This document shows, piece by piece, positions 19,929-57,744 of a stretch of 64,000 nucleotides of DNA. The notes under the pieces are model-generated. The model was not told the origin of the DNA and searched no databases. It saw only the letters and a program-made list of their open reading frames with translations. The position numbers and the translations under genes are program-made. The stretch is from Adhaeretor mobilis (GTDB lineage Bacteria > Planctomycetota > Planctomycetia > Pirellulales > Lacipirellulaceae). The DNA is taken from positions 3,023,178-3,087,177 of the forward strand of contig NZ_CP036263.1 in the NCBI RefSeq assembly GCF_007741515.1, given 5' to 3'. How positions within the stretch are numbered: the first letter of the stretch is position 1; each line of letters starts with the position of its first letter.

Positions 19929-19980
19929 CTCGATCCTGCTGTACTTTCCCAAATATTAGCGGAGTAATCGTCAAAGCCCT

Positions 19981-20033
19981 TGACTTAGTGTAACTATCAC
20001 ACCATAATAGTGTCGATAGGACACTAAGTGACA
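19981..20033. promoter_or_regulatory. candidate autoregulatory NrtR half-sites upstream of nrtR
   Basis: TGACTTAGTGT (19981-19991) and ACACTAAGTGACA (20021-20033) inverted relative to each other; inner imperfect palindrome GTGTAACTATCACAC. Confidence 0.3.
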
Positions 20034-20055
20034 TTGATGTTATCTGGAGCTCAAT

Positions 20056-20745: not shown

Positions 20746-20760
20746 TCCCCTAGAAGAATC

Positions 20761-21813: not shown

Positions 21814-21823
21814 AGATTTGAGC

Positions 21824-22878: not shown

Positions 22879-22887
22879 AAGAGCAGA

Positions 22888-23742
22888 ATGATGAATCGAA
22901 ATAATCGAAAACAAATAGGCAGCCAGACTGTAGAGATCGTAGACCGAGGATGGTACGAGCTTGACAGTCATGGTCGTATTGATATTGCTGCACCGGTGAA
23001 AAACTGCCTGAGCGATACTCGGCTTTACACTCCACATGAATCGGACGACTTGCTGAATAATGAGTACTCCCGTGCATATGAAACCGTGATTGAAGTCGAG
23101 AATGAGACCACCCTGTCGGCTGCAACACGTCTCATCGTTGAGCAGAAACGTCCTAACACTTTGTGTTTGAACTTCGCCTCTGCAAAAAACCCAGGAGGTG
23201 GATTCTTGGGTGGGAGCCAGGCGCAAGAAGAGAGCCTTGCACGTTCGTCCGCACTCTACGCATCTTTGTTGACGCAAAATGTGTACTACGAGACCAATCG
23301 GGCTTGTCGTACCGCGTTATACACTGATCTCATGATCCTCAGCCCAGACGTTCCAGTATTTCGGGCTGATGAGGGCAGCTTATTGCCCGATCCCTATTTG
23401 TTGAGCATTTTGACTTCTCCAGCTGTGAATGCCGGAGCAGTGAAGAAGAATGAGCAGGACAAAGAACCGATGATCATTCCGACTATGACTCAACGTATCG
23501 CAAAGGTGCTCACGATAGCGGCTGAGCATGGCTACGAGCATCTCATTTTTGGGGCATGGGGATGTGGTGTATTTCGAAACGATCCAGGTGAGATCGCAAA
23601 GCTATTCGCGGAGGCGCTACTCGATGGTGGACAATTCTGCAATCGATTCGCCAGTGTGACCTTTGCCGTTTTGGACGGAACCGATGGTGAGCGAATTATC
23701 AGACCGTTCAGACAAGAGTTCGTGAAAGGAGCGTTGAATTGA
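22888..23742 (+). CDS. bacterial-type poly(ADP-ribose) glycohydrolase-like protein (DUF2263/TIGR02452 macro fold)
   Basis: PARG signature NPGGGFLGGSQAQEESLARSS (GGG-X6-8-QEE). Confidence 0.7.
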   Translation: MMNRNNRKQIGSQTVEIVDRGWYELDSHGRIDIAAPVKNCLSDTRLYTPHESDDLLNNEYSRAYETVIEVENETTLSAATRLIVEQKRPNTLCLNFASAKNPGGGFLGGSQAQEESLARSSALYASLLTQNVYYETNRACRTALYTDLMILSPDVPVFRADEGSLLPDPYLLSILTSPAVNAGAVKKNEQDKEPMIIPTMTQRIAKVLTIAAEHGYEHLIFGAWGCGVFRNDPGEIAKLFAEALLDGGQFCNRFASVTFAVLDGTDGERIIRPFRQEFVKGALN

Positions 23743-24716
23743 ATAACACAGCAGTTGATCAACCGTCGACTATTGTCACTGCGGGCATTGTCGGACAAGC
23801 CGTTGGTGATGCTCTCGGCGTTCCAGTTGAATTTCAATCCCGTGAAAGCCTCGATCGAAATCCAGTGATTGGAATGCGTTCAGGTGGTTCGCATGATCAG
23901 CCAGCCGCCACCTGGTCGGACGACTCATCGCTCGTATTCTGCCTTGCTGACAGTATTTGTGAGACAGGCGTTAACTATAAGGACCAGGCGGCTCGTTTTA
24001 TTGGTTGGTTGCTCCGTGCTGAATGGACGCCGCACGGAGATATATTCGATGTTGGAAACGCGACACGTGAAGCCATCCTCCGACTTGATGCGGGCGTAGA
24101 ACCAACTCAAGCTGGACCTACAGGCGAATTCAGTTGCGGTAATGGCTCACTAATGCGAATCCTCCCGATTGCCCTCTACCTCGCTTATGCCAATCGAAAT
24201 GAGCGAATTGAAATAGCTATGAATTGCAGTCGGCTAACGCACGGTCACATCAGGTGCCAACTAGCTTGTGCACTGTTTGTAGAGATTGCAGCAGGCTTGG
24301 CGAGAGGAGGCAGTATCGCCACAAGTTTAGCAGTTGCGCAAGCAACACTTCAGCCGCTAGTTGACGCACAAGAGGAAGCAGAAGTACTGCACTTTTCTAG
24401 GTTGCTTTCCCCGGAGATCGGAGACCTCGACCGATCTGACATCTCTCGTAGCGGATACGTCATACATTGTTTGGAGTCCAGTTTATGGTGCAGCCTAAAT
24501 GCTGGCAGTTATTCCGAAGGTGTCTTGGCCGCCGTAAATCTTGGTGAAGACACGGATACAACTGGCGCAGTAGCTGGTGCACTTCTTAGTCTCATTTACG
24601 GTGTTGATGGGATTCCAAACGATTGGAAGGAATCCCTAGCCCGCAAGAAGGATGTGTGTGAGCTGTCGCACCGCTTCGAAATTGCTTGTCGGAAACGATG
24701 GGAGTTAGACAAATGA
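23739..24716 (+). CDS. ADP-ribosylglycohydrolase family protein (second paralog)
   Basis: VGQAVGDALGVPVEF and GEDTDTTGAVAGALLS. Confidence 0.75.
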   Translation: MNNTAVDQPSTIVTAGIVGQAVGDALGVPVEFQSRESLDRNPVIGMRSGGSHDQPAATWSDDSSLVFCLADSICETGVNYKDQAARFIGWLLRAEWTPHGDIFDVGNATREAILRLDAGVEPTQAGPTGEFSCGNGSLMRILPIALYLAYANRNERIEIAMNCSRLTHGHIRCQLACALFVEIAAGLARGGSIATSLAVAQATLQPLVDAQEEAEVLHFSRLLSPEIGDLDRSDISRSGYVIHCLESSLWCSLNAGSYSEGVLAAVNLGEDTDTTGAVAGALLSLIYGVDGIPNDWKESLARKKDVCELSHRFEIACRKRWELDK

Positions 24717-26185
24717 TCAATCTCAAAACAGTACGCCGAGGCGACCGCGTCGCCGTTTGGAATGCAAAAGGTGAAGTCCGCTTTGTCGACGGACCGAAAC
24801 GCCTGTTGCTATTTCGCGAACGAATCGAATCCTTGCGACGCTACCGAGCCGAACCACATCAGTATCTCGTCGTTCAGTTCCTGGACGGTCGTACCGAGCA
24901 CGTGCGAGGGCCAGCTGAACTTTGGTTAAGCCCCGTCGAGCACGATTCGATAGCCGTGCAAGAAGCAGAGGCGATTGACGCCAACCAGGCTGTGCTGGTT
25001 TACCAACGACAGGATGACGAAAGTGTAAGCCGTCGTGTGCTGTATGGGCCTGCCCAGTACATGCCGGAGTCCAATGAGTGGTTGCAGCGGTTAGATCCAC
25101 TGCGCAGACACAACGCTGAGGCGCACCAGTATCTGGTAGTTCGGTTTCTCGATGGTCGTACCGAGCATCTGCGGGGCCCAGCCGATATTTGGTTTCATCC
25201 AGACGAGCATGAATCCATTGCCGTGGAAGATGCCACGCCAGTCGATGCGCATCAGGCACTGGTTATCTACCGTCGTGAGGCAGACGAACACATCAGCCGC
25301 CGAGTCCTTCATGGCCCTGCTCAGTACGTGCCAGAGGCAAATGAATGGCTTCACCAGTTTCGTTGGCATGGTGCTGACCCCAACGACCCTAAGCACAAAG
25401 TGCCCAGGGCGCTGCGGTTCACCAAACTGCGTGTGATCCCTGACCAAATGTACTTCGATGTGGAGGATGTACGGACAGCAGATGATGCATTGCTGGTCGT
25501 ACAGCTCATGGTCTTCTTTGAGCTCGAAGACATTGAGAAAATGCTTGATCAGACACACGACCCGATTGCCGACTTCATCAATGCACTAGCTGCCGACGTC
25601 ATTGATTTTGCCGCTAGTCGGTCATTTGAGGAATTTAAGGAAGCGACCAACAGCCTCAACGAACAGAACGAGTACACCAATCTAGTTAGTCGCGCTGAAC
25701 GCATCGGGTACCGAGTTAATAAGGTCGTCTATCGAGGCTACGTTGCTTCCAGCAAATTGCAGTCGATGCACGACGATGCAATTGAGAAGCGAACAGCCTT
25801 AAAGCTCGAAGCCGAAACTGAGCGACAAGCACAGGAACTCGCTGATTTGAAGTTGGAGCGTGAGGCCGAGAGAGAAGAAACGCGACGTGGAATGCAACGT
25901 GAGCAAGCTGAGCATGAGCAACGATTGCTACAAGTCCAACATGATGGGGATAGCGGACGCTTGGATGCGGACCAAAAACAGGAGATTGCCCATAAGCGTG
26001 AAATGCAATTGGCGGATGTGGAGCACCTGCGTGGAGAAAACGAAGAACGCCTGAGGTTCCTACGTGAGATTCAGGGGCTACAAGTTGATCTTACCCGCTA
26101 TTTAGTCGCTCAGTACCAGCACCCGGATCGGCTGATCCGAGTAGATGGCACCAACGGCAGTCAACTACACCTACACGACAATTGA
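24686..26185 (+). CDS. SPFH/band-7-like protein with N-terminal tandem ~88-aa repeats and C-terminal coiled coil
   Basis: 2.3 copies of HQYLVVxFLDGRTEHxRGPAxxW...RRVLxGPAQYxPExNEWL; then VEDVRTADDALLVVQLMVFFELEDIEK band-7-like core and an E/R-rich coiled coil. Confidence 0.5.
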   Translation: MSETMGVRQMINLKTVRRGDRVAVWNAKGEVRFVDGPKRLLLFRERIESLRRYRAEPHQYLVVQFLDGRTEHVRGPAELWLSPVEHDSIAVQEAEAIDANQAVLVYQRQDDESVSRRVLYGPAQYMPESNEWLQRLDPLRRHNAEAHQYLVVRFLDGRTEHLRGPADIWFHPDEHESIAVEDATPVDAHQALVIYRREADEHISRRVLHGPAQYVPEANEWLHQFRWHGADPNDPKHKVPRALRFTKLRVIPDQMYFDVEDVRTADDALLVVQLMVFFELEDIEKMLDQTHDPIADFINALAADVIDFAASRSFEEFKEATNSLNEQNEYTNLVSRAERIGYRVNKVVYRGYVASSKLQSMHDDAIEKRTALKLEAETERQAQELADLKLEREAEREETRRGMQREQAEHEQRLLQVQHDGDSGRLDADQKQEIAHKREMQLADVEHLRGENEERLRFLREIQGLQVDLTRYLVAQYQHPDRLIRVDGTNGSQLHLHDN

Positions 26186-26197
26186 TGCGAGGTAGAG

Positions 26198-26743
26198 ATG
26201 GATGAAAAAAGCGAACTAACGACCGTATACGAAGGTCGACATCTGTCGATGGTCCGGAGGGGGCATTGGGAATTCGCAACGCGTAATACCAAGAAGCCCG
26301 CTGTTGGAATTGTCGCCATCACAGACCAAATGAATGTTGTTTTGGTTGAACAGTTTCGTCCACCGGTTGGGCGTAAGGTGGTAGAACTCCCTGCCGGGCT
26401 GGCTGGTGACATTCCAGGCTCGGAGAATGAAGCCCTTGTCGAAGCAGCTAAACGGGAATTGCTGGAAGAGTCCGGATATACAGCAAGTGAATGGACGGAC
26501 CTTGGAAGTGGTTACTCTTCCCCAGGGCTCACGGACGAGTCGATCGTGCTATTCCTGGCCAGGGGCTTAGAAAAGACTGGGCCAGGTGGCGGCGATGAGA
26601 GCGAAGACATTATTGTCCATGAAGTTCCATGGACGGGAGTGGTAGCGTGGCTGCAGCGGCGAGAAGCAAAGGCCGATCTAAAACTTCTTGCTGGATTATA
26701 TGCCGCCTCGCATGCACTAGACAGCACGAAAGGAGCAAACTAA
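26198..26743 (+). CDS. Nudix hydrolase (ADP-ribose pyrophosphatase-like)
   Basis: Nudix box ELPAGLAGDIPGSENEALVEAAKRELLEESG. Confidence 0.75.
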   Translation: MDEKSELTTVYEGRHLSMVRRGHWEFATRNTKKPAVGIVAITDQMNVVLVEQFRPPVGRKVVELPAGLAGDIPGSENEALVEAAKRELLEESGYTASEWTDLGSGYSSPGLTDESIVLFLARGLEKTGPGGGDESEDIIVHEVPWTGVVAWLQRREAKADLKLLAGLYAASHALDSTKGAN

Positions 26744-27367
26744 GTGCCACTACCTATAGAACTTTGGTTAATTCATCCTAAACGCGAAGCCACGCAAGCG
26801 TTTGCATGGCGTTTCGATGGTTTACCGTCTGTGCGCTGCGTCCAAACCAGTTATGAAAATTTGGAGCCGCACGACTGCTTCGTAACCGCAGCTAATTGCT
26901 ACGGGATTATGAATGCCGGTATTGACGCTGCCGTAATCGGAGTCCATGGCGTTGAGCTATGCACTAGAATTCAGAACCGCATTCTTGATGAGTACCTTGG
27001 TGAACAGCCGGTCGGGACTGCGATCATCGAGCCAACGCGAAGTGCTCGCAACCCCTATGTGTGCCATGCTCCAACAATGAGGATCCCTGGGTCGATATGC
27101 GGCACGGACAACGTCTACCGCGCGACGTTCGCCGCCCTGACTTCGATATATCGATACAACGTCTCGCACGATCACCCAATCCATTCGGTTGCTCTACCTG
27201 CAATGGGGTGTGGCTTCGGCGGAATGGACTTCTCTGAGTCTGCGAGACAAATGGCAACTGCGTATACACACTACTTGAGTCCTCCCCATCACCTTGACTG
27301 GGACAATGTGGTGGGCCGTGAGAAAGCGATTTGCTACGACGGTGATACGAGAATTATTCAGACCTAA
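26744..27367 (+). CDS. macro-domain protein (ADP-ribose/Appr-1-p processing)
   Basis: VTAANCYGIMNAGIDAAV and ALPAMGCGFGG motifs of the macro fold. Confidence 0.6.
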   Translation: MPLPIELWLIHPKREATQAFAWRFDGLPSVRCVQTSYENLEPHDCFVTAANCYGIMNAGIDAAVIGVHGVELCTRIQNRILDEYLGEQPVGTAIIEPTRSARNPYVCHAPTMRIPGSICGTDNVYRATFAALTSIYRYNVSHDHPIHSVALPAMGCGFGGMDFSESARQMATAYTHYLSPPHHLDWDNVVGREKAICYDGDTRIIQT

Positions 27368-27924
27368 TGATAACTATGAACGAACAGAAATTGAAAAAAA
27401 TAAGTAAGAGCCTTAGCTATGTGCTACGGCACCGGCCCGACAGCGTAGGGCTAGAATTGGGCGACGGCGGCTGGGTAGCCGTGGAAGATCTATTGGCCGC
27501 TTTCCAGCGATCTGGCAAGACGCTGTCACGAGAGTTGCTCGATGTGGTAGTTGCTGAGAACGACAAACAACGATTCGAGTTTTCAGAGGACAACACCCAA
27601 ATTCGAGCACGGCAAGGACATTCGGCTGAGGTTGATCTCGGCTATGAGCCGGCCACCCCACCAGATGTGCTGTACCATGGCACGGCTACAAAAAACTTAG
27701 AATCGATTCGTCAGAAGGGGCTGATCAAAGCCAATCGACATCATGTGCACATGTCTACGAACAAGGAGACAATGCTCGATGTTGCGAAGAGGCATGGGAA
27801 ACCTATTTTATTGGCAGTCGATGCCAAGCAAATGCTCGCCGATGGGCATGAGTTCTTCGTCACTGGAAACAGTGTCTGGCTGACAGATCATGTACCGCCG
27901 GAGTACCTCTCGCAGGAGGACTGA
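27367..27924 (+). CDS. kptA: RNA 2-prime-phosphotransferase Tpt1/KptA
   Basis: LSYVLRHRP, RFEFS, IRARQGHS, LYHGT, RHHVHMS, GNSVWL: the KptA/Tpt1 signature residues. Confidence 0.8.
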   Translation: MITMNEQKLKKISKSLSYVLRHRPDSVGLELGDGGWVAVEDLLAAFQRSGKTLSRELLDVVVAENDKQRFEFSEDNTQIRARQGHSAEVDLGYEPATPPDVLYHGTATKNLESIRQKGLIKANRHHVHMSTNKETMLDVAKRHGKPILLAVDAKQMLADGHEFFVTGNSVWLTDHVPPEYLSQED

Positions 27925-31360: not shown

Positions 31361-31448
31361 ATTCGTTGATAGCTTGATTCTGCAGGAGATTATACTGCAA
31401 ATTGAAAAACCGGAGGCCAAGATCACTCCCGGCCTCCGGCGTTCACTA

Positions 31449-32699
31449 CTACAACAGGTTGACGACCCGATCGGCCAGGCCCTTTTCGCCTAGCACGACG
31501 TTGAGGTTACCAGTTGTGGCAACCCGCTCCAAAACTTCCAGTTCTCGGAGTCGCATGAGGGTCGGGTTGTCGGCCAGTAGCTTGGCAGTGTTTGCCTGGC
31601 TACGCATAGCCGCCGTCTCCTCACGTCGGAAAATCAGGTTCGCCTCAGCCGCCTTCTTGGCTTCGGTGACCTTGTTCATCAGGTCCTTCATGTCGCCCGG
31701 CAGGATGACATCTCGGACACCTACCGAAACAACTTCCAGACCCAATTCACCCGCACGCTGGCGGACCTGCTCCTCGAATTCGTTAGTAACGGCATCCTTA
31801 TCCGTCAGGAACGAATCCAAATCACGAGTACCAACCACGGCACGCAAAGCCAACTGTGCCTCACGGTAAAGCGACTGCTTTGCGCCGTCGGTAACGGTTA
31901 CGGCCTTACGCGCATCGATGATGCGGTAAGTGACCAGCGCGTTCATACGCAGGGTGACCTTGTCGGCGGTCATGATTTCCTGACCCGCCACATCCAAAGC
32001 CTGCTCACGCATGTCGACTTCGACAACCTTCGAATCAGCCACGTTCTTCCAAAACGCGTACTGACCTGGGGCCAATGTCTCTACGTAGTCGCCGTCCTGG
32101 AACGACACACCGACGTGGTTTCGCTCAACCGAGCAGATGTCTAGCATCTGTTCAGCATAAGGTGACCGGACAATCGTCTTCAGATCACCATGCTGCAAAC
32201 GAACTTCGCGGGCGTCGATCACTTCAATACGTACGTCCTTAAAGCCCGTCCAGTAGGCGCATAGCCCTGGTGGCAACACGTGTGTGAAACGACCTTCAAT
32301 CCAGACTAGTGCGCGCTCGTAGTCCTTCAGGTCAACGACCTCAGCAACATCCGTGAGTGCACCACTCTTGACGATCACATCGAGCTTGTCGTGCGTGATC
32401 AATGGTTCTCGCTGTGAGACCACGTCGACGCGGACCTTCCACAGCGGATCGAACAACCTGTACCGACCCTTGGTCAGCAATCGCTGGAATTCACCGTCGC
32501 GGAAGTACAAACCGACTCCATAGCTGCGAATCTTTACTCTCTTAAACAACATGAGGTTGCACCTCCTTTCTTGCCGAATTGCTACATTGTTGGAAGTGGG
32601 GTGTTCGGCTCGCCACGCACTTCTTAGTAAATCTATGTACAGGGAGTTGAAGACTATTGATTTATGTTCTTGGTTCGCAATAGCGTGAAATAAAAACAC
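31449..32699 (-). CDS. SPFH/band-7 (stomatin/HflC-like) protein with two N-terminal beta-repeat modules
   Basis: TADKVTLRMNALVTYRIIDARKAV...DVILPGDMKDLMNKVTEAKKAAEA. Confidence 0.7.
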   Translation of the reverse strand: MFLFHAIANQEHKSIVFNSLYIDLLRSAWRAEHPTSNNVAIRQERRCNLMLFKRVKIRSYGVGLYFRDGEFQRLLTKGRYRLFDPLWKVRVDVVSQREPLITHDKLDVIVKSGALTDVAEVVDLKDYERALVWIEGRFTHVLPPGLCAYWTGFKDVRIEVIDAREVRLQHGDLKTIVRSPYAEQMLDICSVERNHVGVSFQDGDYVETLAPGQYAFWKNVADSKVVEVDMREQALDVAGQEIMTADKVTLRMNALVTYRIIDARKAVTVTDGAKQSLYREAQLALRAVVGTRDLDSFLTDKDAVTNEFEEQVRQRAGELGLEVVSVGVRDVILPGDMKDLMNKVTEAKKAAEANLIFRREETAAMRSQANTAKLLADNPTLMRLRELEVLERVATTGNLNVVLGEKGLADRVVNLL

Positions 32700-33037
32700 C
32701 CTCGGGCAGCGGAACGAATCACTTAGTCACACATCCGCACGCGGAGTGCAATTTGAGCGGTCATGTTCGCAGCATCTTTCAGTTGCTTTCACCAGTGAGG
32801 CCGTTACGAGCATTGCTCGTTAGGCGACACGTAGCTTCCGCAACCTTCGGACACAGCGTGCGTGAAAGCGGTATCCACACACTGCATAGCGCCGGTCTGT
32901 GCTGTCGCTACGCTATCGTCTTACCGAAGTAAGTACGACAACGCGCGGCTGACCAAACAACCGTTCGCTACCCTCGGGCTTCATGGTGACGCTTTCGCGC
33001 CGGTTCCCTTGCATAGGGGAGCAGGTTTACAGCCTGC

Positions 33038-33110
33038 GGCTTGGTACGGGAATCGAACCCGCGACTTCCAGAGTCATGGTCTGGTGCTCTACCCACTGAG
33101 CTAACCAATG
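33038..33110 (-). tRNA. tRNA-like, 73 nt; good D and T arms, anticodon loop CCATGAC (non-canonical C33), isotype unresolved
   Basis: minus-strand TAGCTCAGTGGGTAGAGC D-arm, GCGGG-TTCGATT-CCCGT T-arm; positions 1-72 and 2-71 mispaired. Confidence 0.4.
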
Positions 33111-33232
33111 GTGGTCTTGCCTCGCCTTCGTAATAATCCAATCACGGAACACATCACACCGACCACTAACGTAGGGTGCAATGCGCCGCTGGCCCAGCGA
33201 CGACAAATCCTTGCTTAAAAGTTCTTGCTAAG

Positions 33233-33303
33233 AGACGCCGGTGGGAGTCGAACCCACTTCAACCGGGTTGCAGCCGGTGGCCTAGCCGTCTGGCTCCAGC
33301 GTC
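33233..33303 (-). tRNA. tRNA-Cys (GCA)
   Basis: acceptor GACGCTG/CGGCGTC, anticodon stem-loop ACCGG-CTGCAAC-CCGGT, T-arm GTGGG-TTCGACT-CCCAC. Confidence 0.7.
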
Positions 33304-33312
33304 TTTCTTAAG

Positions 33313-33384
33313 TAGCCCATCCAGGAGTTGAACCTGGCCCTCGACCTTCGCAGGGTCGCGTGCAATCCACCACACTCACAGGCT
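33313..33384 (-). tRNA. tRNA-Arg (GCG), tentative anticodon
   Basis: anticodon arm CGACC-CTGCGAA-GGTCG; T-arm CCAGG-TTCAACT-CCTGG. Confidence 0.5.
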
Positions 33385-33389
33385 ATAAG

Positions 33390-33461
33390 TACCGTGTCAG
33401 GGAATCGAACCCCGTCCCGCAGTTTCGAAGACTGCGATGCTATCCAGCACACCCACACGGC
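33390..33461 (-). tRNA. tRNA-Arg (TCG)
   Basis: GCAGT-CTTCGAA-ACTGC; T-arm CGGGG-TTCGATT-CCCTG; only 5 nt from the previous gene. Confidence 0.6.
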
Positions 33462-33469
33462 ATGTTTAG

Positions 33470-33541
33470 TATCTCGACCTGGAATCGAACCAAAACTTGG
33501 ACTTTAGGAGAGTCCTGTGCGATCCGTTACACCATCGAGAT
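33470..33541 (-). tRNA. tRNA-Arg (CCT)
   Basis: perfect acceptor ATCTCGA/TCGAGAT; GGACT-CTCCTAA-AGTCC. Confidence 0.65.
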
Positions 33542-33545
33542 ATGG

Positions 33546-33633
33546 GGCCGACGACTGGATTCGCACCAGCATCAACCGCCGCTCTTTCAATGAACGGGGC
33601 AAAACCGGTGCCTAGCTATTCGGCCACGTCGGC
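33546..33633 (-). tRNA. aberrant 88-nt tRNA-like: canonical acceptor, D and T arms, Ser(TGA)-like anticodon arm CGTTC-ATTGAAA-GAGCG, plus a 13-nt extra hairpin between D and anticodon arms
   Basis: acceptor GCCGACG/CGTCGGC perfect; T-loop TGCGAAT. Confidence 0.35.
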
Positions 33634-33637
33634 AAAG

Positions 33638-33707
33638 CACGAGTGCAAGGATTCGAACCCTGTCCGTCAGTTTTGGAGGCTGACTGCTCTCCCAGGAGCA
33701 CACTCGT
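33638..33707 (-). tRNA. tRNA-like, 70 nt, 9-nt anticodon loop (CCTCCAAAA); isotype unresolved
   Basis: acceptor ACGAGTG/CACTCGT perfect; T-arm CAGGG-TTCGAAT-CCTTG. Confidence 0.35.
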
Positions 33708-33713
33708 ATTGAG

Positions 33714-33787
33714 GGTATCCAATGGGAGTCGAACCCATACTTCCTGCTTCACAGGCAGGCGTGCGTACCACGTACACTACAGACACC
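33714..33787 (-). tRNA. tRNA-His (GTG) with encoded G-1
   Basis: G-1 opposite C73; CCTGC-CTGTGAA-GCAGG; T-arm ATGGG-TTCGACT-CCCAT. Confidence 0.6.
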
Positions 33788-33796
33788 ATATATAAG

Positions 33797-33868
33797 TAGC
33801 TCGACCAGGATTCGAACCTGGAACCTCTCGTTAGAAGCGAGACATGATGTCCGTTTCACCATCGAGCC
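33797..33868 (-). tRNA. tRNA-Arg (TCT)
   Basis: TCTCG-CTTCTAA-CGAGA; T-arm CCAGG-TTCGAAT-CCTGG. Confidence 0.65.
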
Positions 33869-33890
33869 ATTTCATAGAATCAACTTCCAG

Positions 33891-33979
33891 CGGAAGGCAT
33901 GGGATTTGAACCCACATGACCTTTGTAAAGTCGCACGGTTTAGCAAACCGGCCCGGCGAGCCGTATAGGGCTACCTTCC
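33891..33979 (-). tRNA. tRNA-Ser (GCT), type II with long variable arm
   Basis: anticodon loop TTGCTAA; variable hairpin GACTTT-ACA-AAGGTC; T-arm GTGGG-TTCAAAT-CCCAT. Confidence 0.55.
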
Positions 33980-33990
33980 ATCTTTTTCAG

Positions 33991-34077
33991 TGGACCCACT
34001 GGGAATCGAACCCAGCCAGGTCCCTAGAGAATTGGCCAGCCTGCCGAGCTGGTGTCTTCCCTTTTGACCATGAGCCC
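33991..34077 (-). tRNA. type-II-length tRNA-like (87 nt), anticodon loop TCGGCAG (C33), isotype unresolved
   Basis: acceptor GGGCTCA/TGGGTCC (two G-U); T-arm CTGGG-TTCGATT-CCCAG. Confidence 0.35.
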
Positions 34078-34082
34078 TAAAG

Positions 34083-34153
34083 TGGAGCGTCGGGGAATCG
34101 AACCCCGATTGCCTGGGTGCAAGCCAAGCGTCTTCCCGTTGGACCAACGCCCC
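34083..34153 (-). tRNA. tRNA-Ala (TGC)
   Basis: G3-U70 identity pair; CTTGG-CTTGCAC-CCAGG; T-arm CGGGG-TTCGATT-CCCCG. Confidence 0.7.
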
Positions 34154-34169
34154 ATTAGTTTTCCTAAAT

Positions 34170-34240
34170 AGGTCCGTCCGGGAATTGAACCCGGTCCTCG
34201 TCCTTACCACAGACGTGTGCCGCCGAAACACTTACAGACC
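34170..34240 (-). tRNA. tRNA-Thr (GGT)
   Basis: CGTCT-GTGGTAA-GGACG; T-arm CCGGG-TTCAATT-CCCGG. Confidence 0.6.
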
Positions 34241-34250
34241 AATCATCAAG

Positions 34251-34323
34251 TGATCCCGGATGGAGTCGAACCATCGCTTTCCTGGTTGTCATCCAGGCGT
34301 CTTAGCCGTTGGACCACGGGATC
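34251..34323 (-). tRNA. tRNA-Val (GAC)
   Basis: perfect acceptor GATCCCG/CGGGATC; CCTGG-ATGACAA-CCAGG. Confidence 0.7.
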
Positions 34324-34329
34324 ATTAAG

Positions 34330-34405
34330 TGACTAGGGTGGGAGTCGAACCCACAAAATCATCAGACTCTCGACCTGATCGCTTTGCCAGTTTGCGTACC
34401 CAGTC
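34330..34405 (-). tRNA. class-I tRNA-like with Leu-type anticodon region (TCAGG-TCGAGAG-TCTGA, GAG?); D-arm CGC-AAACTGGCAAA-GCG shared with 35215..35293
   Basis: T-arm GTGGG-TTCGACT-CCCAC; no long variable arm. Confidence 0.35.
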
Positions 34406-34428
34406 ATTTTTTTTGTTGTTCTCCCTTA

Positions 34429-34926
34429 ATGAACGAAAACAAAATCGCATTGACCCAGGCGGATCTTATCCCGCTTGAAGACTTCGAATTGTGCTGGCGG
34501 TGGAGAGACCCGCAATACATACTCCTTGCGGACGAAGAACTATCCGAAATCACTCCTCTATGTCCAACTGCGGCGCAAAAGGTCTACTCTGTTGCGAGAT
34601 CGTTTACCCTCGACTCTTCCTTTCGTTTGTCGTCGTCTCTCTTTCGAGAATGTGTTGATTGCGACACTTCTGGCGAGCCCAGCGACGGGCGAAAGTGGCT
34701 CGAAAGAGTCACACGATCATTTGATCCTTCACTGGACATTGTTGTAACGTGGAGCGAGGAACTTGCTGTCGCAACGAAGTTGTGGCTGTTCGTGAAATAC
34801 TGGGACGACTTTTGCTACCCGATGTCGGATGACACTACGGTGTTTCCAAGTGAATTAAAGTGGGCAATTCAGTATTGGCACGAAGAACATCTTTACTTTG
34901 GCAAATACGTTCGACAGTCAGATTGA
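34429..34926 (+). CDS. hypothetical protein (166 aa from MNENKIAL) embedded in the tRNA array on the opposite strand
   Basis: ORF only; Trp/Cys-rich; fills the one gap in the array. Confidence 0.35.
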   Translation: MNENKIALTQADLIPLEDFELCWRWRDPQYILLADEELSEITPLCPTAAQKVYSVARSFTLDSSFRLSSSLFRECVDCDTSGEPSDGRKWLERVTRSFDPSLDIVVTWSEELAVATKLWLFVKYWDDFCYPMSDDTTVFPSELKWAIQYWHEEHLYFGKYVRQSD

Positions 34927-34951
34927 TCGCAATCTAACTCATTCATATAAA

Positions 34952-35021
34952 GTTGCGGCATCGGGGGTCGCACCCGACGATCCAGGCTTATGAGGCCCGG
35001 TTGAGCACTGGCTCACCCGCG
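34952..35021 (-). tRNA. tRNA-Met (CAT)-like, probably degenerate
   Basis: canonical anticodon arm CGGGC-CTCATAA-GCCTG, but T-loop TGCGACC and an acceptor stem that does not close. Confidence 0.3.
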
Positions 35022-35033
35022 CTAGTTTTCTTA

Positions 35034-35105
35034 GTAGCCCGTACGGGATTCGAACCCGTGCCGCGAGATTGAGGGTCTCGCATCCTGCCGCTAGACCAAC
35101 GGGCC
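35034..35105 (-). tRNA. tRNA-Glu (CTC), tentative (C33)
   Basis: CGAGA-CCCTCAA-TCTCG; T-arm ACGGG-TTCGAAT-CCCGT. Confidence 0.45.
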
Positions 35106-35117
35106 ATGTTGCTTTCA

Positions 35118-35199
35118 GTGCGCCGGGCAGGAGTTGAACCTGCAAAGCTCGAAAGCGGGTGGGTTACAGCCACTTGGGCTCGCCAATGCCCAGCCGACG
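35118..35199 (-). tRNA. tRNA-Tyr (GTA), type II
   Basis: D-stem GGGC/GCCC, loop CTGTAAC, variable hairpin GCT-TTCG-AGC, T-arm GCAGG-TTCAACT-CCTGC. Confidence 0.6.
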
Positions 35200-35214
35200 C
35201 ATGTCTTTCATCAA

Positions 35215-35293
35215 GTAGCACGGGTGGGAGTCGAACCCACAAACAGTCACGAAGGTTTGAGCTTCGTCGCTTTGCCAGTTTGCGTACCGCGCC
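35215..35293 (-). tRNA. class-I tRNA-like with CAA anticodon (CGAAG-CTCAAAC-CTTCG); paralog of 34330..34405
   Basis: identical D-arm TACGCAAACTGGCAAAGCG and T-arm GTGGGTTCGACTCCCAC. Confidence 0.35.
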
Positions 35294-35300
35294 TTAGTAA

Positions 35301-35375
35301 GCGTCCCCGATGGGATTTGAACCCACGACCTCCTGCGTGACAGGCAGGCGAGCACTCCAAGCTGCTCCACGAGGA
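35301..35375 (-). tRNA. tRNA-Asp (GTC)
   Basis: CCTGC-CTGTCAC-GCAGG; T-arm GTGGG-TTCAAAT-CCCAT. Confidence 0.65.
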
Positions 35376-35391
35376 CAGAGTTTTTGTTGCA

Positions 35392-35465
35392 GTAGCCCAG
35401 GTGGGACTCGAACCCACAGCATCCCTGGTTCTAAGCCAAGGTGGTCTGCCAATTGCCTACCGGGC
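35392..35465 (-). tRNA. class-I tRNA-like with TAG (Leu-type) anticodon, poorly formed D-arm
   Basis: CTTGG-CTTAGAA-CCAGG; T-arm GTGGG-TTCGAGT-CCCAC. Confidence 0.35.
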
Positions 35466-35481
35466 CATTCTTATTTATGAA

Positions 35482-35554
35482 GTAGTCCTGGGTGGACTCG
35501 AACCACCGATTGCCTTCTTGTAAGGAAGATGCCTTAGCCGCTAGACCACAGGAC
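35482..35554 (-). tRNA. tRNA-Val (TAC)
   Basis: TCTTC-CTTACAA-GAAGG; T-arm GGTGG-TTCGAGT-CCACC. Confidence 0.65.
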
Positions 35555-35560
35555 CATGTA

Positions 35561-35645
35561 GCGGAAGTCGAGGGACTCGAACCCCCAAGTCGCCGGGGCG
35601 ACCAACTGTTTTCAAGACAGTCTCCTCATCCGGCCGGATGACTTC
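35561..35645 (-). tRNA. tRNA-Ser (TGA), type II
   Basis: perfect acceptor GGAAGTC/GACTTCC; ACTGT-CTTGAAA-ACAGT; variable hairpin GGTCGCC/GGCGACT. Confidence 0.65.
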
Positions 35646-35650
35646 CGTTA

Positions 35651-35722
35651 GCTGCGGGAGTTGGACTCGAACCAACATCAGAGCGTTCAGAGCGCCCCGT
35701 CCTACCGTTGAACGACCCCGCA
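35651..35722 (-). tRNA. tRNA-Gln (CTG)
   Basis: U1-A72; GGGCG-CTCTGAA-CGCTC; T-arm GTTGG-TTCGAGT-CCAAC. Confidence 0.65.
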
Positions 35723-35737
35723 TAATTTGTGTTGCTA

Positions 35738-35813
35738 GTTCCGGGGGTAGGAATCGAACCTACGGACTCCTGCTTCAAAGGCAGGCATCACTACCAGCAG
35801 CGACGACCCCGGA
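35738..35813 (-). tRNA. tRNA-Gln (TTG)
   Basis: U1-A72, perfect acceptor TCCGGGG/CCCCGGA; CCTGC-CTTTGAA-GCAGG. Confidence 0.65.
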
Positions 35814-35834
35814 ATGAATTCGTTCACTTCGAAA

Positions 35835-35906
35835 GAGTGCCCTGTGGGAGTCGAACCCACCTCGCCAGCTTGGAAGGCTGGAACCTTTACCGCTCGGCCA
35901 AGGGCA
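35835..35906 (-). tRNA. tRNA-Gly (TCC)
   Basis: perfect acceptor GTGCCCT/AGGGCAC; CCAGC-CTTCCAA-GCTGG. Confidence 0.7.
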
Positions 35907-35912
35907 CGCATA

Positions 35913-35987
35913 GCTGCGGAGGCAGGGATCGAACCTGCGTCTAAGCGATTAACAGTCGCCCTCCCGTACCAGCACAGGACCCACCGC
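35913..35987 (-). tRNA. tRNA-Asn (GTT)
   Basis: GGCGA-CTGTTAA-TCGCT; T-arm GCAGG-TTCGATC-CCTGC; one acceptor mismatch (6-67). Confidence 0.55.
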
Positions 35988-35995
35988 ATCAACTA

Positions 35996-36088
35996 GTCAG
36001 GACGGCTGGATTCGAACCAGCGATCCCCTGCTTCCAAAGCAGGCCCAGCGTTTCCTTGTGAAATTGGGACCAAGCTATCCCACGTCCT
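35996..36088 (-). tRNA. aberrant 93-nt tRNA-Pro (TGG)-like with a 22-nt insertion between D and anticodon arms
   Basis: perfect acceptor CAGGACG/CGTCCTG, D-stem GGGA/TCCC, CCTGC-TTTGGAA-GCAGG, T-arm GCTGG-TTCGAAT-CCAGC; a canonical 74-nt tRNA-Pro(TGG) is also present at 37003..37076. Confidence 0.4.
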
Positions 36089-36093
36089 GAAAA

Positions 36094-36164
36094 ATGCGCC
36101 CAGCCGGAATCGAACCGACACATCCTGCATGGCAAGCAGGAAGGCTGCCACTACATCATGGGCG
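36094..36164 (-). tRNA. tRNA-Gly (GCC)
   Basis: perfect acceptor GCGCCCA/TGGGCGC; CCTGC-TTGCCAT-GCAGG. Confidence 0.6.
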
Positions 36165-36219
36165 CAAGCTATTGCTAACCAAATTGTCAAAGATCGGGAA
36201 CGCATCGACGTTCCATGAG

Positions 36220-36289
36220 CACCGGGTCGGACTCTCTCGCGACGTCGCCGCTGTACGAGAGCGGAGTCTTGGCCGCTAGACGACCAGTG
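36220..36289 (-). pseudogene. pseudo-tRNA, Thr(CGT)-like, with a destroyed T-arm
   Basis: acceptor GCACTGG/CCGGTGC closes, D-arm GTCTAGCGGCCAAGAC, CCGCT-CTCGTAC-AGCGG, but the T-arm is replaced by GTCGCGAGAGAGTCCGAC. Confidence 0.35.
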
Positions 36290-36316
36290 CTTTACTATCA
36301 ACATGTTTTGCTGAGT

Positions 36317-36553
36317 ATGCTCAATTCACGTATACTTCGAGTTATGTGGAAAATTGGTCTAATTGCATTTCTCACCCTCAGCTTTATTGCCATCGCAGGT
36401 ACCGAATTCCTTCGCTCCCACGTTCGCCGTATTCGAGAGCGAGATCACCCAGTTACAGGAACTCAAGGTATTGCCATGTGGGGATCTCTAATCACGGGGA
36501 TATGCCTCTTAGGAACTTTCGTTTGTGGCATCATGGCTTGGTTATCAAGCTAA
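36317..36553 (+). CDS. small hypothetical 2-TM membrane protein (start trimmed; the upstream part of the ORF overlaps the pseudo-tRNA)
   Basis: MWKIGLIAFLTLSFIAIAG ... SLITGICLLGTFVCGIMAWL. Confidence 0.25.
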   Translation: MLNSRILRVMWKIGLIAFLTLSFIAIAGTEFLRSHVRRIRERDHPVTGTQGIAMWGSLITGICLLGTFVCGIMAWLSS

Positions 36554-36574
36554 GTAGCCAAAATAGTAATCAGT

Positions 36575-36640
36575 GGGACCAGAGGGACTCGAACCCTCAC
36601 CCCGCCGGTTAAGAGCCGCCCCGACTCCTGGGTAAATGGG
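36575..36640 (-). pseudogene. tRNA fragment (anticodon-arm-like CTCTTAA loop plus T-arm GAGGG-TTCGAGT-CCCTC) with no matching 5-prime acceptor strand
   Basis: manual folding; acceptor cannot be closed. Confidence 0.25.
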
Positions 36641-36679
36641 CTGCCGCTAACACCTCAGTCCCAAGTTTTCATTCATCAA

Positions 36680-36752
36680 TTGGCGTGGAAGGAATTGAAC
36701 CTTCGGCCCGCGACTTATAAGGTCGCCGCTCTCACCACTGAGCTACACGCCA
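36680..36752 (-). tRNA. tRNA-Ile (TAT)
   Basis: D-arm GCTC-AGTGGTGA-GAGC, GCGAC-CTTATAA-GTCGC, T-arm GAAGG-TTCAATT-CCTTC. Confidence 0.6.
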
Positions 36753-36756
36753 GTAG

Positions 36757-36829
36757 TCGGGCCGGAGGGATTCGAACCCACACCCACCTGATTAAAAGTC
36801 AGGGATGCTTCCGTTACACCACAACCCGA
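36757..36829 (-). tRNA. tRNA-Lys (TTT)
   Basis: CCTGA-CTTTTAA-TCAGG; T-arm GTGGG-TTCGAAT-CCCTC (one mismatch). Confidence 0.55.
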
Positions 36830-36904
36830 TAGTTGGTTGGGCATATCTGTTTACATCGCAGGACAGTTGACATCGTGTTTCTCCTTTCGATTCGTAGAAC
36901 GTTG

Positions 36905-36985
36905 AAAGTGGTAGCCCTGGGAATTGAACTCAGCGCAACTCGGTTATCAGCCGCCTATAACAATTGATGCTGGGGGCAATAAGCC
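36905..36985 (-). pseudogene. degenerate tRNA-like (GAT anticodon loop CTGATAA, weak stems, acceptor not closable)
   Basis: T-loop TTCAATT motif plus a terminal GGGGGCAATAAGCCC hairpin. Confidence 0.2.
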
Positions 36986-37002
36986 CTCGACTACCGTGTA
37001 AG

Positions 37003-37076
37003 TCAGAACGGTCGGACTCGAACCGACGATCTCTTGGTCCCAAACCAAGCGCGATGCCAAACTTCGCTACGTTCTG
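37003..37076 (-). tRNA. tRNA-Pro (TGG)
   Basis: perfect acceptor CAGAACG/CGTTCTG; CTTGG-TTTGGGA-CCAAG; T-arm GTCGG-TTCGAGT-CCGAC. Confidence 0.7.
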
Positions 37077-37083
37077 TTTTTAT

Positions 37084-37155
37084 TACCCCGTGAGGGAATC
37101 GAACCCTCATCTGCAGATTGAAAGCCTGCAATCCTTACCAATAGACCAACGGGGC
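37084..37155 (-). tRNA. tRNA-Glu (TTC)
   Basis: GCAGG-CTTTCAA-TCTGC; T-arm GAGGG-TTCGATT-CCCTC. Confidence 0.65.
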
Positions 37156-37380
37156 AAACAACTTAGCACACATGCCACGAAAGCATGTGAGCGCAAGGCG
37201 TTAGTAATCAAATCTCTATCTGCGTACCGGTAGCGCAAAGTGGGCTGGGAGGCGCTCGAATTCTCGTATGCGGTTCTTCAAACCGCCGCCCAGCTTTTGC
37301 AGGGAGACGGGGCATCTCAGCTACCAGCCCAAATTTGTTTTGGGGACCGCCTCTTTGATCGAGAGGAGCCAACAAAAAAA

Positions 37381-37412
37381 GCCCGGCGTCGCTATGACAC
37401 CGGGCCTTGTGG
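37381..37412 (-). terminator. rho-independent terminator downstream of rtcA (minus strand)
   Basis: plus-strand AAAAAAAGCCCGGCGTCGCTATGACACCGGGC = minus-strand GC-rich hairpin followed by a U-run. Confidence 0.5.
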
Positions 37413-37785
37413 CTCATCAAAGAGTAGGCCAAGTGTCATAATCGCCGCCCCATTGATTCAAAAGGGCCGCTGGCGAGCGCATATATGGGCTGTTCATTCA
37501 CCGGTTGGGCAAATGATTTATCAGCCGGCAAACATGCCGCCAGAGATCGGGCTATGAAACTTGGTCTTAAATGAATCATTTTGGTTACCTCTATCTAAAC
37601 CCAACTCTTAGGTCATTGGCCCATCAATGGAGCAATGTTTCGTTGGTCTCTCTATAAGAGTGTCAAATCGGCATTTGGTTCGTGCAAAATTCTCAAATTC
37701 TTCAAATCAACTTTGTGAAAGCATTCACGAGAGCTACTACATTTCACTACTGCCTTGCGCTCACTTGCCGTTTGGGCAAGTGTGC

Positions 37786-53334: not shown

Positions 53335-53390
53335 GTCAGCCGACACCGAATAGGCAGTAGCAGTAAGCGTTTCCAAGCGAGATCAATACC

Positions 53391-57725: not shown

Positions 57726-57744
57726 CCCCGCGAAAGTTTCTTTG

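Follow-up and report, generated by a model that had tools for sequence, protein, structure and literature searches.

A long tRNA array at an apparently vertically inherited locus of Pirellulales, with a candidate leader switch and a probable Band-7-associated tRNA-like RNA

Long arrays of tRNA genes, described as L-arrays or tRNA array units, have been surveyed in bacteria (Tran et al. 2016, PMC4758250; Santamaria-Gomez et al. 2021, PMC8421152), and both surveys record arrays in Planctomycetes. The best-studied L-array, the 26-gene trn operon of Anabaena sp. PCC 7120, stays silent in standard growth and responds to translational stress from ribosome-targeting antibiotics; it shares its regulation with rtcB, and 23 of its 26 tRNAs are aminoacylated (PMC8421152). 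This operon is under the control of the TrcR repressor, which acts at direct repeats (PMC10272220). For phage tRNA clusters, a role in escaping anticodon nucleases has been suggested (van den Berg et al. 2023, PMC10264068), and the papers on mycobacterial arrays make no mention of repair genes. The function of bacterial long arrays is disputed, the Anabaena work pointing to translational stress and the phage work to anticodon-nuclease evasion. Here, we describe a tRNA array in a 64-kb stretch (the window, whose positions are used throughout) of the chromosome of Adhaeretor mobilis HG15A2 (CP036263, 5,996,859 bp), a member of the family Lacipirellulaceae, order Pirellulales. Long tRNA arrays are already known; the architecture found here is a new variant. 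A literature search returned no fixed, vertically inherited array fused to a Band-7 tRNA-like RNA and a slipin gene, no switch based on a leader open reading frame (ORF) and no long structured RNA downstream of a tRNA-like unit. The locus offers a second L-array model, in a cultured strain with a closed genome and in a different phylum, where the disputed function can be tested, and its array is physically joined to the least understood RNA-repair module, that of Band-7 and a tRNA-like RNA.

ARAGORN, applied to the whole window, called 30 tRNA genes; every one lies on the minus strand, within 33038-37156, and the rest of the DNA gave none. In a whole-window Rfam scan, 24 of the 30 passed the gathering score of RF00005 (34 to 74 bits), and a sensitive scan returned 26 RF00005 matches of at least 29 bits. 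The genes for Ser TGA and Ser GCT matched the related tRNA-Sec model in the sensitive scan, below its threshold, and those for Thr GGT and Tyr GTA were ARAGORN calls only. Taken together, 26 to 28 of the genes reach the Rfam tRNA threshold. Once Ser GCT and six degenerate units, recognized with a relaxed ARAGORN threshold and by orthology, are added, the array consists of 36 units (33232-37330), with a median spacer of 9 nucleotides (nt) and 28 of the 36 spacers at or below 21 nt. The highest pairwise identity among members is 0.80 and the median is 0.61; therefore, the array holds no recent duplicates. An earlier note, made from the letters of this DNA, had described about 30 minus-strand tRNA genes with very short spacers and diverse, not recently duplicated, sequences, and these numbers agree with it. 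It had also said that its reading would fall if most units scored below the covariance-model threshold or if identical copies elsewhere marked trivial duplication; most scored above it, and no two members are more than 80% identical. The bounds it had given, 33038-37155, have to be changed, since the 5′ end of the array reaches 37330, where a degenerate Phe unit lies, and the unit at 33038-33110 is a tRNA-like RNA that lies outside the array.

Like the L-arrays of Tran et al. (2016), defined by a minimum of 20 tRNA genes and of 2 such genes per kb, the A. mobilis array is long and dense (30 ARAGORN tRNAs in 4.1 kb, about 7 per kb). Its genes share one orientation, are spaced closely enough for co-transcription and are non-periodic, showing no growth by tandem accretion. 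Also shared with L-arrays are the coverage of nearly all amino acids, the presence of some pseudogenes, protein ORFs embedded in the array, and RNA-processing or repair neighbours such as rtcB. In contrast to the L-arrays, which are scattered horizontally, that of A. mobilis appears to occupy a fixed locus with vertical descent over several genera, it is fused at its 3′ side to a tRNA-like RNA and a slipin gene, and a leader switch, not a TrcR-type repressor, would control it.

The intact-looking genes cover 18 amino acids, and the Phe and initiator-like Met units are decayed. Aminoacylation identity elements are kept where checked (His G-1/C73, Ala G3:U70, Gln U1-A72/G73, Leu A73). No unit encodes CCA, with the possible exception of the disrupted Thr TGT unit. 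The anticodons and the His, Ala and Gln elements listed in the earlier note were right; the list had overlooked Trp CCA, Leu TAG, CAA and GAG, and a second Ala (GGC). Units that it could not assign are indeed aberrant, but orthology gives them an isotype: Phe GAA, Ile GAT, Lys CTT, Thr CGT, Pro (CGG changed to TGG), Thr TGT and an initiator-like CAT. A separate observation concerns the nucleotides after the discriminator, which are C74-U75, not CCA, in 118 of 148 array tRNAs across eight loci. The same CU follows the discriminator of the single non-array tRNA observed, a Ser GGA of Bythopirellula goksoeyrii, and this suggests that the motif is a shared host 3′-processing context, a lineage-wide signal.

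Relatives were compared at seven loci that carry a slipin orthologue: B. goksoeyrii (L008), Aeoliella mucimassa (L009), a close Adhaeretor relative (L011), a Pirellulales metagenome-assembled genome (MAG; L015) and three metagenome assemblies (L010, L012 and L014). Every one of these loci has tRNA genes of the same array directly upstream of slipin and in the same order. Their number ranges from 4 in A. mucimassa, where the array is a remnant, through 14 in L014, 17 in L010, about 20 in B. goksoeyrii and 23 in L012, to 36 in L015; the array of L011 is cut by the contig end. A 1-kb contig with a partial array (L004) has the order Ser-Ala-Ala-(Thr)-Val-Leu-(antisense ORF-A)-tRNA, as in the window. 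The flanks are another matter. The 5′ flank could be read in three relatives, B. goksoeyrii, L012 and L015, and the upstream neighbours vary by genome (sugar catabolism, HEAT-repeat, HipAB), rtcA being found there only in A. mobilis. Genes downstream of slipin also differ between genomes. The array of L012 includes an HNH endonuclease ORF (7613-8209 of that locus, plus strand) between His GTG and Trp CCA, which echoes the HNH genes linked to cyanobacterial L-arrays.

Alignment of 19 groups of orthologous tRNAs gave 428 stem pairs, 95 of which have compensatory changes on both sides, and 98% of the stem cells (1463 of 1494) are canonical. Covariation is seen, for example, in the anticodon stem of both Asp GTC and Leu GAG and in the acceptor stem of the latter. 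Because orthologous tRNAs differ by compensatory stem changes, the cloverleaf folds have been maintained by selection through genus-level divergence. The comparison also indicates that the array is inherited vertically within a clade of Pirellulales at one fixed locus. The horizontal acquisition suggested in the earlier note does not fit the recent history of the array, the locus and gene order being the same in every relative examined and the divergence compensatory; an ancient acquisition is possible. The array had no megablast match in E. coli genomes, phages or plasmids, and distant blastn searches of phage and plasmid collections gave matches to single tRNAs only, mostly in actinophage tRNA clusters, with no colinear array. 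The flanking ORFs that were scanned belong to repair, NAD, copper-resistance and MoxR-type genes and showed no integrase or phage structural domain, and no slipin homologue was found in phages. The array shares with phage tRNA clusters its redundancy, the capacity it could have to bypass tRNA-targeting nucleases, and short-arm Leu tRNAs that resemble those of phages; it differs in its chromosomal location and in its maintenance by the host, and no phage genes were found nearby. Within the family, tRNA counts range from 46 to 77, and the two Bythopirellula reference strains have 70 and 77 (PMC13315336). Such counts would be expected if an array were added to a base set of about 46 to 48 genes, which would make the array supernumerary to the housekeeping tRNAs.

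The earlier note had placed the array between an NAD/ADP-ribose/nucleotidyltransferase island and rtcBA. The position is right, but the adjacency to rtcBA is lineage-specific and seems to be a peculiarity of Adhaeretor, the conserved partner of the array being, as far as the compared loci indicate, the slipin/Band-7 gene. The slipin encoded in the window is 100% identical to the A. mobilis protein and 94% identical to that of B. goksoeyrii, and the approximately 650 nt between Cys GCA (33232) and the slipin start (32552) are conserved in all eight loci, the window included. This segment contains the tRNA-like unit at 33038-33110, which keeps D, anticodon and T arms, has an acceptor stem eroded to 3 to 5 pairs, and has a 7-nt "anticodon" loop that varies freely between genomes. 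A reading of the unit as tRNA-His or tRNA-Met was discarded. The anticodon stem covaries (CCAGA/UCUGG, CCAGG/CCUGG, CCAUC/GAUGG, CCAGU/ACUGG), and in the first 230 nt of the block 14 of 51 pairs show compensatory changes on both sides, with 96% of cells canonical, compared with about 38% when partners are shifted.

A band 7-associated tRNA was predicted by Burroughs and Aravind (2016) beside Band-7 genes in RtcB-type repair systems, and the account of it in bioRxiv 10.1101/312249 describes it as lacking experimental validation. The unit at 33038-33110 matches that description, and it is probably this component of the RNA-repair module and not an array member. A tRNA-like gene lies directly upstream of the Band-7/SPFH gene in all eight loci, and in the window two RlaP genes follow downstream, RtcB lies upstream and RtcR is near. 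The window differs from the described module in that the tRNA-like unit sits within a conserved RNA of about 500 nt that covaries, and a full array comes before it; moreover, RlaP is also linked in L011, whereas the Band-7 gene of the other relatives has no adjacent ligase, RlaP or other repair enzyme. A Citrobacter plasmid locus has the order rtcR, sigma-54 promoter, RNA of about 250 nt, slipin and RlaP, and the motifs GUGUUCCGU and GGGUUCGAUUCCC are common to its RNA and to the window block; neither ARAGORN nor Rfam calls the Citrobacter RNA.

Two further features of this block were observed. Between the tRNA-like unit and the slipin ribosome-binding site there is a conserved, covarying RNA of about 350 nt, with a closing long helix (GGGUAGCGAAC... 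/ ...GUUCCGCUGCCC) and U tract. Rfam has no match for it, the block giving only the tRNA match; it may represent a large non-coding RNA or else a 5′ untranslated region that attenuates slipin. The start of the block has a perfect 13-nt palindrome, CGCTGGGCCAGCG, kept in six loci, which could be an RNA hairpin or a protein operator.

Upstream of the first unit, the array is preceded by a conserved leader. At its 5′ edge there is a candidate CRP/FNR-like palindrome, CGTGAATGCTTTCACA in the window, CGTGATAAGATTCACA in B. goksoeyrii and CGTGACGGATTTCACG in L015. It is followed by a small ORF of 47 codons, with orthologues of 43 amino acids (aa) in B. goksoeyrii, 39 in L015 and 50 in L012. Synonymous changes are present between genomes, for example Arg AGA to CGG, which argues that the ORF is translated. 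Its UGA stop lies in the 5′ strand of a predicted antiterminator hairpin, the 3′ strand of which (37406-37394) is at the same time the 5′ half of an intrinsic terminator, so that the two hairpins, of nearly equal energy, are mutually exclusive. In the four genomes compared (the window, B. goksoeyrii, L015 and L012), the stop opens a UGACAC stretch that pairs with GUGUCA of the terminator 5′ half. The terminator and about 300 nt upstream of it are kept with the array in B. goksoeyrii, L012 and L015, where rtcA is absent, and we rejected the idea that it merely marks the end of rtcA. A small ORF combined with a terminator and an antiterminator of which only one can form is the arrangement of a leader-peptide attenuator. 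As in the trp, his and pheL attenuators, there is an ORF with a Shine-Dalgarno sequence, and the ribosome position would decide between hairpins. Unlike those, the array leader has three pairing regions instead of four, has its stop codon within the masked strand, would act on tRNAs and not on biosynthetic enzymes, and has no run of regulatory codons, its 47 codons specifying 18 different amino acids. The switch, if real, senses translation in general. The Rfam scan assigned the leader to no family and returned nothing for T-box, GOLLD or ROOL. The leader showed no convincing sigma-70 promoter, and a search for sigma-54 promoters before the array and the Band-7 block found none.

The conserved order of the locus is promoter region, leader ORF with terminator and antiterminator, array, tRNA-like RNA and slipin/Band-7. 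We favour, at a probability of roughly 0.55, the reading that it is a vertically inherited L-array that adds to the housekeeping tRNAs, is gated by the leader switch and is joined to the Band-7 module. Beyond the sequences, structures, synteny and fold selection described above, we infer the following steps of expression. Transcription would start upstream of the leader ORF. In healthy translation, a ribosome at the UGA stop would mask the 5′ strand of the antiterminator, the terminator would form and the array would be silent. When ribosomes stall, either because tRNAs are cleaved or depleted or because the ribosome is poisoned, the antiterminator would form instead and RNA polymerase would enter the array. 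Processing of the polycistronic precursor by RNase P and a 3′ endonuclease, with enzymatic addition of CCA, would then refill the tRNA pool alongside the Band-7 repair module. Stalling would thus turn the array on through a ribosome-mediated attenuator. Buffering against tRNA depletion is our best guess of the function; the leader switch gives it a concrete, though putative, regulatory mechanism. If the switch works as outlined, the cell uses translation to gauge how intact its tRNA pool is and responds by expressing a spare set, and the Band-7 RNA gains a context that can be tested.

Several observations weigh against this reading. With no diagnostic codon run, the leader ORF may simply encode a small protein and be followed by a terminator of its own. 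In the switch region three of the four leaders hardly differ, so that comparative support for the alternative pairing comes mainly from L012 and is thin. The decay of seven units in A. mobilis suggests that selection has relaxed on part of the array; the array is also interrupted by two antisense ORFs, and the Band-7 block may have its own promoter.

In A. mobilis, the array lies directly downstream of an operon of the Salmonella type, the RtcR-controlled rsr-yrlA-rtcBA (Chen et al. 2014 and Hughes et al. 2020, as cited in PMC8421152), which is here found in a planctomycete. RtcR is divergent from rsr, a sigma-54-like site upstream of rsr is the only such site relevant to the operon, and two tandem YrlA RNAs, above the Rfam gathering score, separate rsr from rtcB. 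A 237-aa ORF lies between rtcB and rtcA; it is absent from L001. Two other Pirellulales MAGs, L001 and L002, have an orthologous rtcR-rsr-Y RNA-rtcB-rtcA set. Protein identity with these two is 66 to 83%, neither has the array, and their DNA downstream of the rtc operon shares nothing with the window. No minus-strand terminator was predicted between rtcA (end 37786) and 37408. Since the rtc operon thus has no terminator of its own before the switch, its transcription may reach the gate, and in A. mobilis the damage-induced, RtcR- and sigma-54-dependent transcription of rsr-yrlA-rtcB-rtcA may feed it. On this basis one can imagine an integrated circuit that surveys and replaces the tRNA pool: the leader peptide reads stalling and switches on the spare set and a Band-7 scaffold, and in Adhaeretor the gate is also fed by RtcR-activated Rsr/YrlA/RtcBA, followed by end-healing through RlaP, Tpt1, Macro and NUDIX, repair and replacement forming one programme. 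We put this forward tentatively, as a possibility with the odds against it.

Another relation to the same operon would be that the array is part of it and is induced directly by damaged tRNA ends, the leader and terminator only marking the operon 3′ end. The shared strand, the position right after rtcA, the lack of a predicted terminator before 37408 and the sigma-54 site upstream of rsr would all suit such an arrangement. It is nevertheless the least probable of the explanations considered, because among the loci that can be judged the adjacency exists in A. mobilis only: L001 and L002 have the operon and no array, and B. goksoeyrii, L012 and L015 have array and leader beside unrelated genes. 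There is, in addition, a strong terminator between the two units, and the leader block has a conserved upstream palindrome of its own. The array thus differs from the components of the Salmonella-type operon found in the window (RtcR, the sigma-54 site, Rsr/Ro60, two YrlA, RtcB and RtcA) in not being conserved with them.

Were the array the decaying remains of a tRNA cluster that once belonged to a phage or mobile element in the distant past, hitch-hiking beside a conserved gene with no regulated host function, stems maintained by compensatory substitutions at genus-level divergence would not be expected. Neither would the conserved gene order, leader and 3′ partner amid flanks that are not conserved, the lack of phage, plasmid or E. 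coli DNA matches and of integrase or phage structural domains among the flanking ORFs scanned, or the post-discriminator CU that the members have in common with the one non-array host tRNA observed. A relic would explain why the best matches of single members lie in tRNA clusters of actinophages and other phages, the HNH ORF of L012, the variable content of the arrays, the decay of the seven units and the insertion of foreign ORFs; on balance we regard it as quite improbable, though not as much so as simple membership of the rtc operon. Somewhat less unlikely, and still unlikely, is that the array tRNAs are expressed and serve mainly for something other than decoding, as nuclease decoys or sponges, as sentinels whose 2′,3′-cyclic phosphate ends activate RtcR, or as cofactors or clients of a scaffold of Band-7 and the tRNA-like RNA. 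A sponge role has been proposed for Anabaena (PMC8421152). The array is fused to an RNA that, with its variable loop and eroded acceptor stem, cannot decode; oddities such as the G55 T-loops of the Thr TGT and CAT units and the short-arm Leu tRNAs are kept across genomes, insertion-bearing Pro and Lys units are each kept in two, and Rsr/YrlA, RtcB, RlaP and Tpt1 all lie within 10 kb. However, decoding predicts intact members with canonical anticodon loops that cover nearly all amino acids, which is what is found, together with the His, Ala, Gln and Leu identity elements where checked; the array tRNAs of Anabaena, furthermore, are charged in vivo.

Table 1. Positions of the array units, the leader, the Band-7 block and neighbouring features in the window, listed along the minus strand.
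Feature	Position	Strand	Evidence and remarks
Copper/heavy-metal resistance genes	49362..63999
RtcR	43526..45109	+	divergent from rsr
Sigma-54-like site	43336..43351	-	TGGCACGCCTGCTGCA
rsr (Rsr/Ro60)	41697..43310	-
YrlA RNA	41219..41415	-	Rfam
YrlA RNA	41070..41199	-	Rfam
237-aa ORF	38852..39565	-
CRP/FNR-like palindrome cGTGA-N6-TCACa, candidate	37709..37724	-	conserved sequence; 5′ edge of conserved leader block
Leader small ORF, 47 aa (MIHLRPSFIARSLAAC...GRRL)	37436..37579	-	ORF list; orthologues; GAGG Shine-Dalgarno
Predicted antiterminator hairpin	37394..37439	-	5′ strand AUGACACUUGGCC with leader UGA stop (37438-37436); -23.0 kcal/mol, z -4.6
Intrinsic terminator	37374..37408	-	13-bp stem + U7; -23.7 kcal/mol; about 45 nt upstream of first tRNA unit
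Phe GAA unit, degenerate	37240..37330	-	18-nt D-loop insertion; low-threshold ARAGORN; normal Phe GAA orthologues in L008, L012, L015
tRNA-Glu TTC	37083..37156	-	ARAGORN; Rfam 61.9 bits
tRNA-Pro TGG	37002..37076	-	ARAGORN; Rfam 65.5 bits
Ile GAT unit, degenerate	36908..36995	-	15-nt insertion; normal Ile GAT orthologue in L008, L015
tRNA-Lys TTT	36756..36828	-	ARAGORN; Rfam 58.9 bits
tRNA-Ile TAT	36680..36752	-	ARAGORN; Rfam 74.2 bits, top score of the window
Lys CTT unit	36573..36662	-	16-nt insertion; low-threshold ARAGORN and orthology
Antisense ORF, 69 aa	36344..36553	+	hydrophobic, apparently two-segment membrane-like; in 282-nt gap; no family match
Thr CGT pseudogene	36218..36290	-	T-loop destroyed: GGTTCGAGTCC in L015, L012; GCGAGAGAGTCC in window
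tRNA-Gly GCC	36094..36166	-	ARAGORN; Rfam 54.9 bits
Pro unit (TGG; relatives CGG)	35996..36089	-	D-region insertion of about 19 nt; Rfam 25.3 bits, below threshold
tRNA-Asn GTT	35913..35988	-	ARAGORN; Rfam 37.5 bits
tRNA-Gly TCC	35835..35907	-	ARAGORN; Rfam 60.6 bits
tRNA-Gln TTG	35738..35813	-	ARAGORN; Rfam 34.3 bits
tRNA-Gln CTG	35651..35722	-	ARAGORN; Rfam 53.5 bits
tRNA-Ser TGA	35561..35646	-	long variable arm; ARAGORN; tRNA-Sec model 41.1 bits
tRNA-Val TAC	35482..35555	-	ARAGORN; Rfam 57.4 bits
tRNA-Leu TAG	35392..35466	-	75 nt, short variable region; ARAGORN; Rfam 43.2 bits
tRNA-Asp GTC	35301..35376	-	ARAGORN; Rfam 56.5 bits; anticodon stem covaries between genomes
tRNA-Leu CAA	35215..35293	-	79 nt, truncated variable arm (85 nt in L012); ARAGORN
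tRNA-Tyr GTA	35118..35200	-	class II; ARAGORN; no RF00005 match
tRNA-Glu CTC	35034..35105	-	ARAGORN; Rfam 59 bits
CAT unit, initiator-like	34951..35019	-	weakened acceptor stem; weak Rfam Tymo_tRNA-like match only; kept in L008, L010, L015
Antisense ORF-A, 165 aa	34429..34926	+	DUF2947-like hypothetical protein; embedded in array
tRNA-Leu GAG	34329..34405	-	77 nt; ARAGORN; Rfam 42.4 bits
tRNA-Val GAC	34250..34323	-	ARAGORN; Rfam 60.8 bits
tRNA-Thr GGT	34170..34240	-	ARAGORN only; orthologues in L010, L014, L015
tRNA-Ala TGC	34082..34153	-	G3:U70; ARAGORN; Rfam 56.2 bits
tRNA-Ala GGC	33990..34077	-	16-nt variable-loop insertion (72 nt in L004, L012); ARAGORN; Rfam 41.9 bits
tRNA-Ser GCT	33890..33979	-	low-threshold ARAGORN; tRNA-Sec model 29.4 bits
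tRNA-Arg TCT	33796..33868	-	ARAGORN; Rfam 60.5 bits
tRNA-His GTG	33713..33786	-	genomic G-1, C73; ARAGORN; Rfam 51.7 bits
tRNA-Trp CCA	33637..33707	-	ARAGORN; Rfam 35.3 bits
Thr TGT unit	33543..33633	-	16-nt anticodon-loop insertion; Rfam 37.1 bits; ARAGORN miscall Gln
tRNA-Arg CCT	33469..33541	-	ARAGORN; Rfam 48.8 bits
tRNA-Arg TCG	33389..33461	-	ARAGORN; Rfam 41.1 bits
tRNA-Arg GCG	33312..33384	-	ARAGORN; Rfam 44.4 bits
tRNA-Cys GCA	33232..33303	-	last true array member; ARAGORN; Rfam 46.8 bits
Conserved structured RNA block upstream of slipin	32690..33205	-	alignment, covariation; hairpins with GUGUUCCGU, tRNA-like unit, about 350 nt more
Palindrome CGCTGGGCCAGCG	33186..33198	-	start of Band-7 RNA block
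Probable Band-7-associated tRNA-like RNA	33038..33110	-	ARAGORN "His ATG"; Rfam 52.5 bits, model positions 3-68 only
Covarying RNA, about 350 nt	32690..33037	-
Slipin/Band-7 (SPFH) gene	31449..32552	-	Pfam Band_7; conserved downstream partner of the array
Intrinsic terminator after slipin	31409..31440	-	terminator prediction
NAD/ADP-ribose island	16477..27924	+	Pfam
SWIM to VWA cluster	6208..16139	-	includes second RtcB
Second, shorter RtcB	14503..15636	-

Most of the aberrant units seem, by comparison with their orthologues, to be decayed forms of normal tRNAs, and the array is apparently in partial decay in the A. mobilis lineage. Relative to their orthologues, six units (Phe GAA, Ile GAT, Lys CTT, Pro, Thr TGT and Ala GGC) have insertions of 15 to 19 nt, which affect the D region, anticodon loop or variable loop. 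B. goksoeyrii has the Lys insertion too, and L015 that of Pro; those of Phe and Thr TGT share the start GCCCCGT. Two isotypes called by ARAGORN were discarded on the basis of orthology, a 91-nt "Gln TTG" that is the disrupted Thr TGT unit and a low-threshold "Phe AAA" that is the disrupted Pro unit. The T-loop of the Thr TGT and CAT units reads UGCGA in every genome, where G stands in for the near-universal U55. Two initiator-like traits, a mismatch at 1:72 and a lower anticodon stem rich in G/C, are likewise constant in the CAT unit. The variable regions of three Leu tRNAs are shortened.

As for the antisense ORFs, the one of 69 aa is specific to A. mobilis and its reality is doubtful; the gap that houses it is missing from B. 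goksoeyrii. ORF-A is 100% identical to a protein of A. mobilis and has a 60% homologue that is also embedded in an array (L004) and a 64% homologue on a 580-bp contig (L005) that is too short to show flanks. More distant homologues sit outside arrays, and scans of metagenomes and viruses with an ORF-A alignment returned only distant non-array homologues or nothing. ORF-A has no Pfam match.

RNA-repair genes are unusually abundant in the neighbourhood. On the minus strand, in order of increasing position, the genes around the array encode a 292-aa protein, RlaP, a DUF1559 protein, a second RlaP, slipin/Band-7, the array, RtcA, the 237-aa protein, RtcB, the two YrlA RNAs and Rsr/Ro60. The plus-strand island contains, according to Pfam, NAPRTase, NAD synthase (NadE), NrtR, two ADP-ribosylglycohydrolases, a PncA-like isochorismatase, a nucleoside deoxyribosyltransferase-like protein, a microbial PARG, a 499-aa protein, NUDIX, Macro and Tpt1/KptA. 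This content is consistent with NAD-dependent removal of RNA 2′-phosphates and clean-up of the ADP-ribose product. The 237-, 292- and 499-aa proteins had no Pfam match, and eight neighbouring proteins had no PADLOC defence-system match. RlaP, Tpt1, Macro and NUDIX follow slipin only in A. mobilis and L011, and the L011 proteins (from the 499-aa protein through Tpt1, plus the two RlaP) are 83 to 94% identical to those of the window. L011 has, between slipin and RlaP (3479-5356 of its locus, plus strand), a divergent EF-Tu paralogue of 393 aa (about 516 bits against E. coli EF-Tu) and a NIF-type phosphatase, both absent from the window.

Farther from the array, a second, shorter RtcB lies beside a 168-aa ORF and a cluster of SWIM, a 603-aa protein of no assigned family, MoxR AAA+, DUF5682 and VWA (CoxE-like) genes, which may be another RNA-repair or conflict system. 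Unrelated to the array is a copper/heavy-metal resistance region with a P-type ATPase, an outer-membrane efflux protein, a multicopper oxidase and a CusA/CusB-like RND pump with heavy-metal-binding domains.

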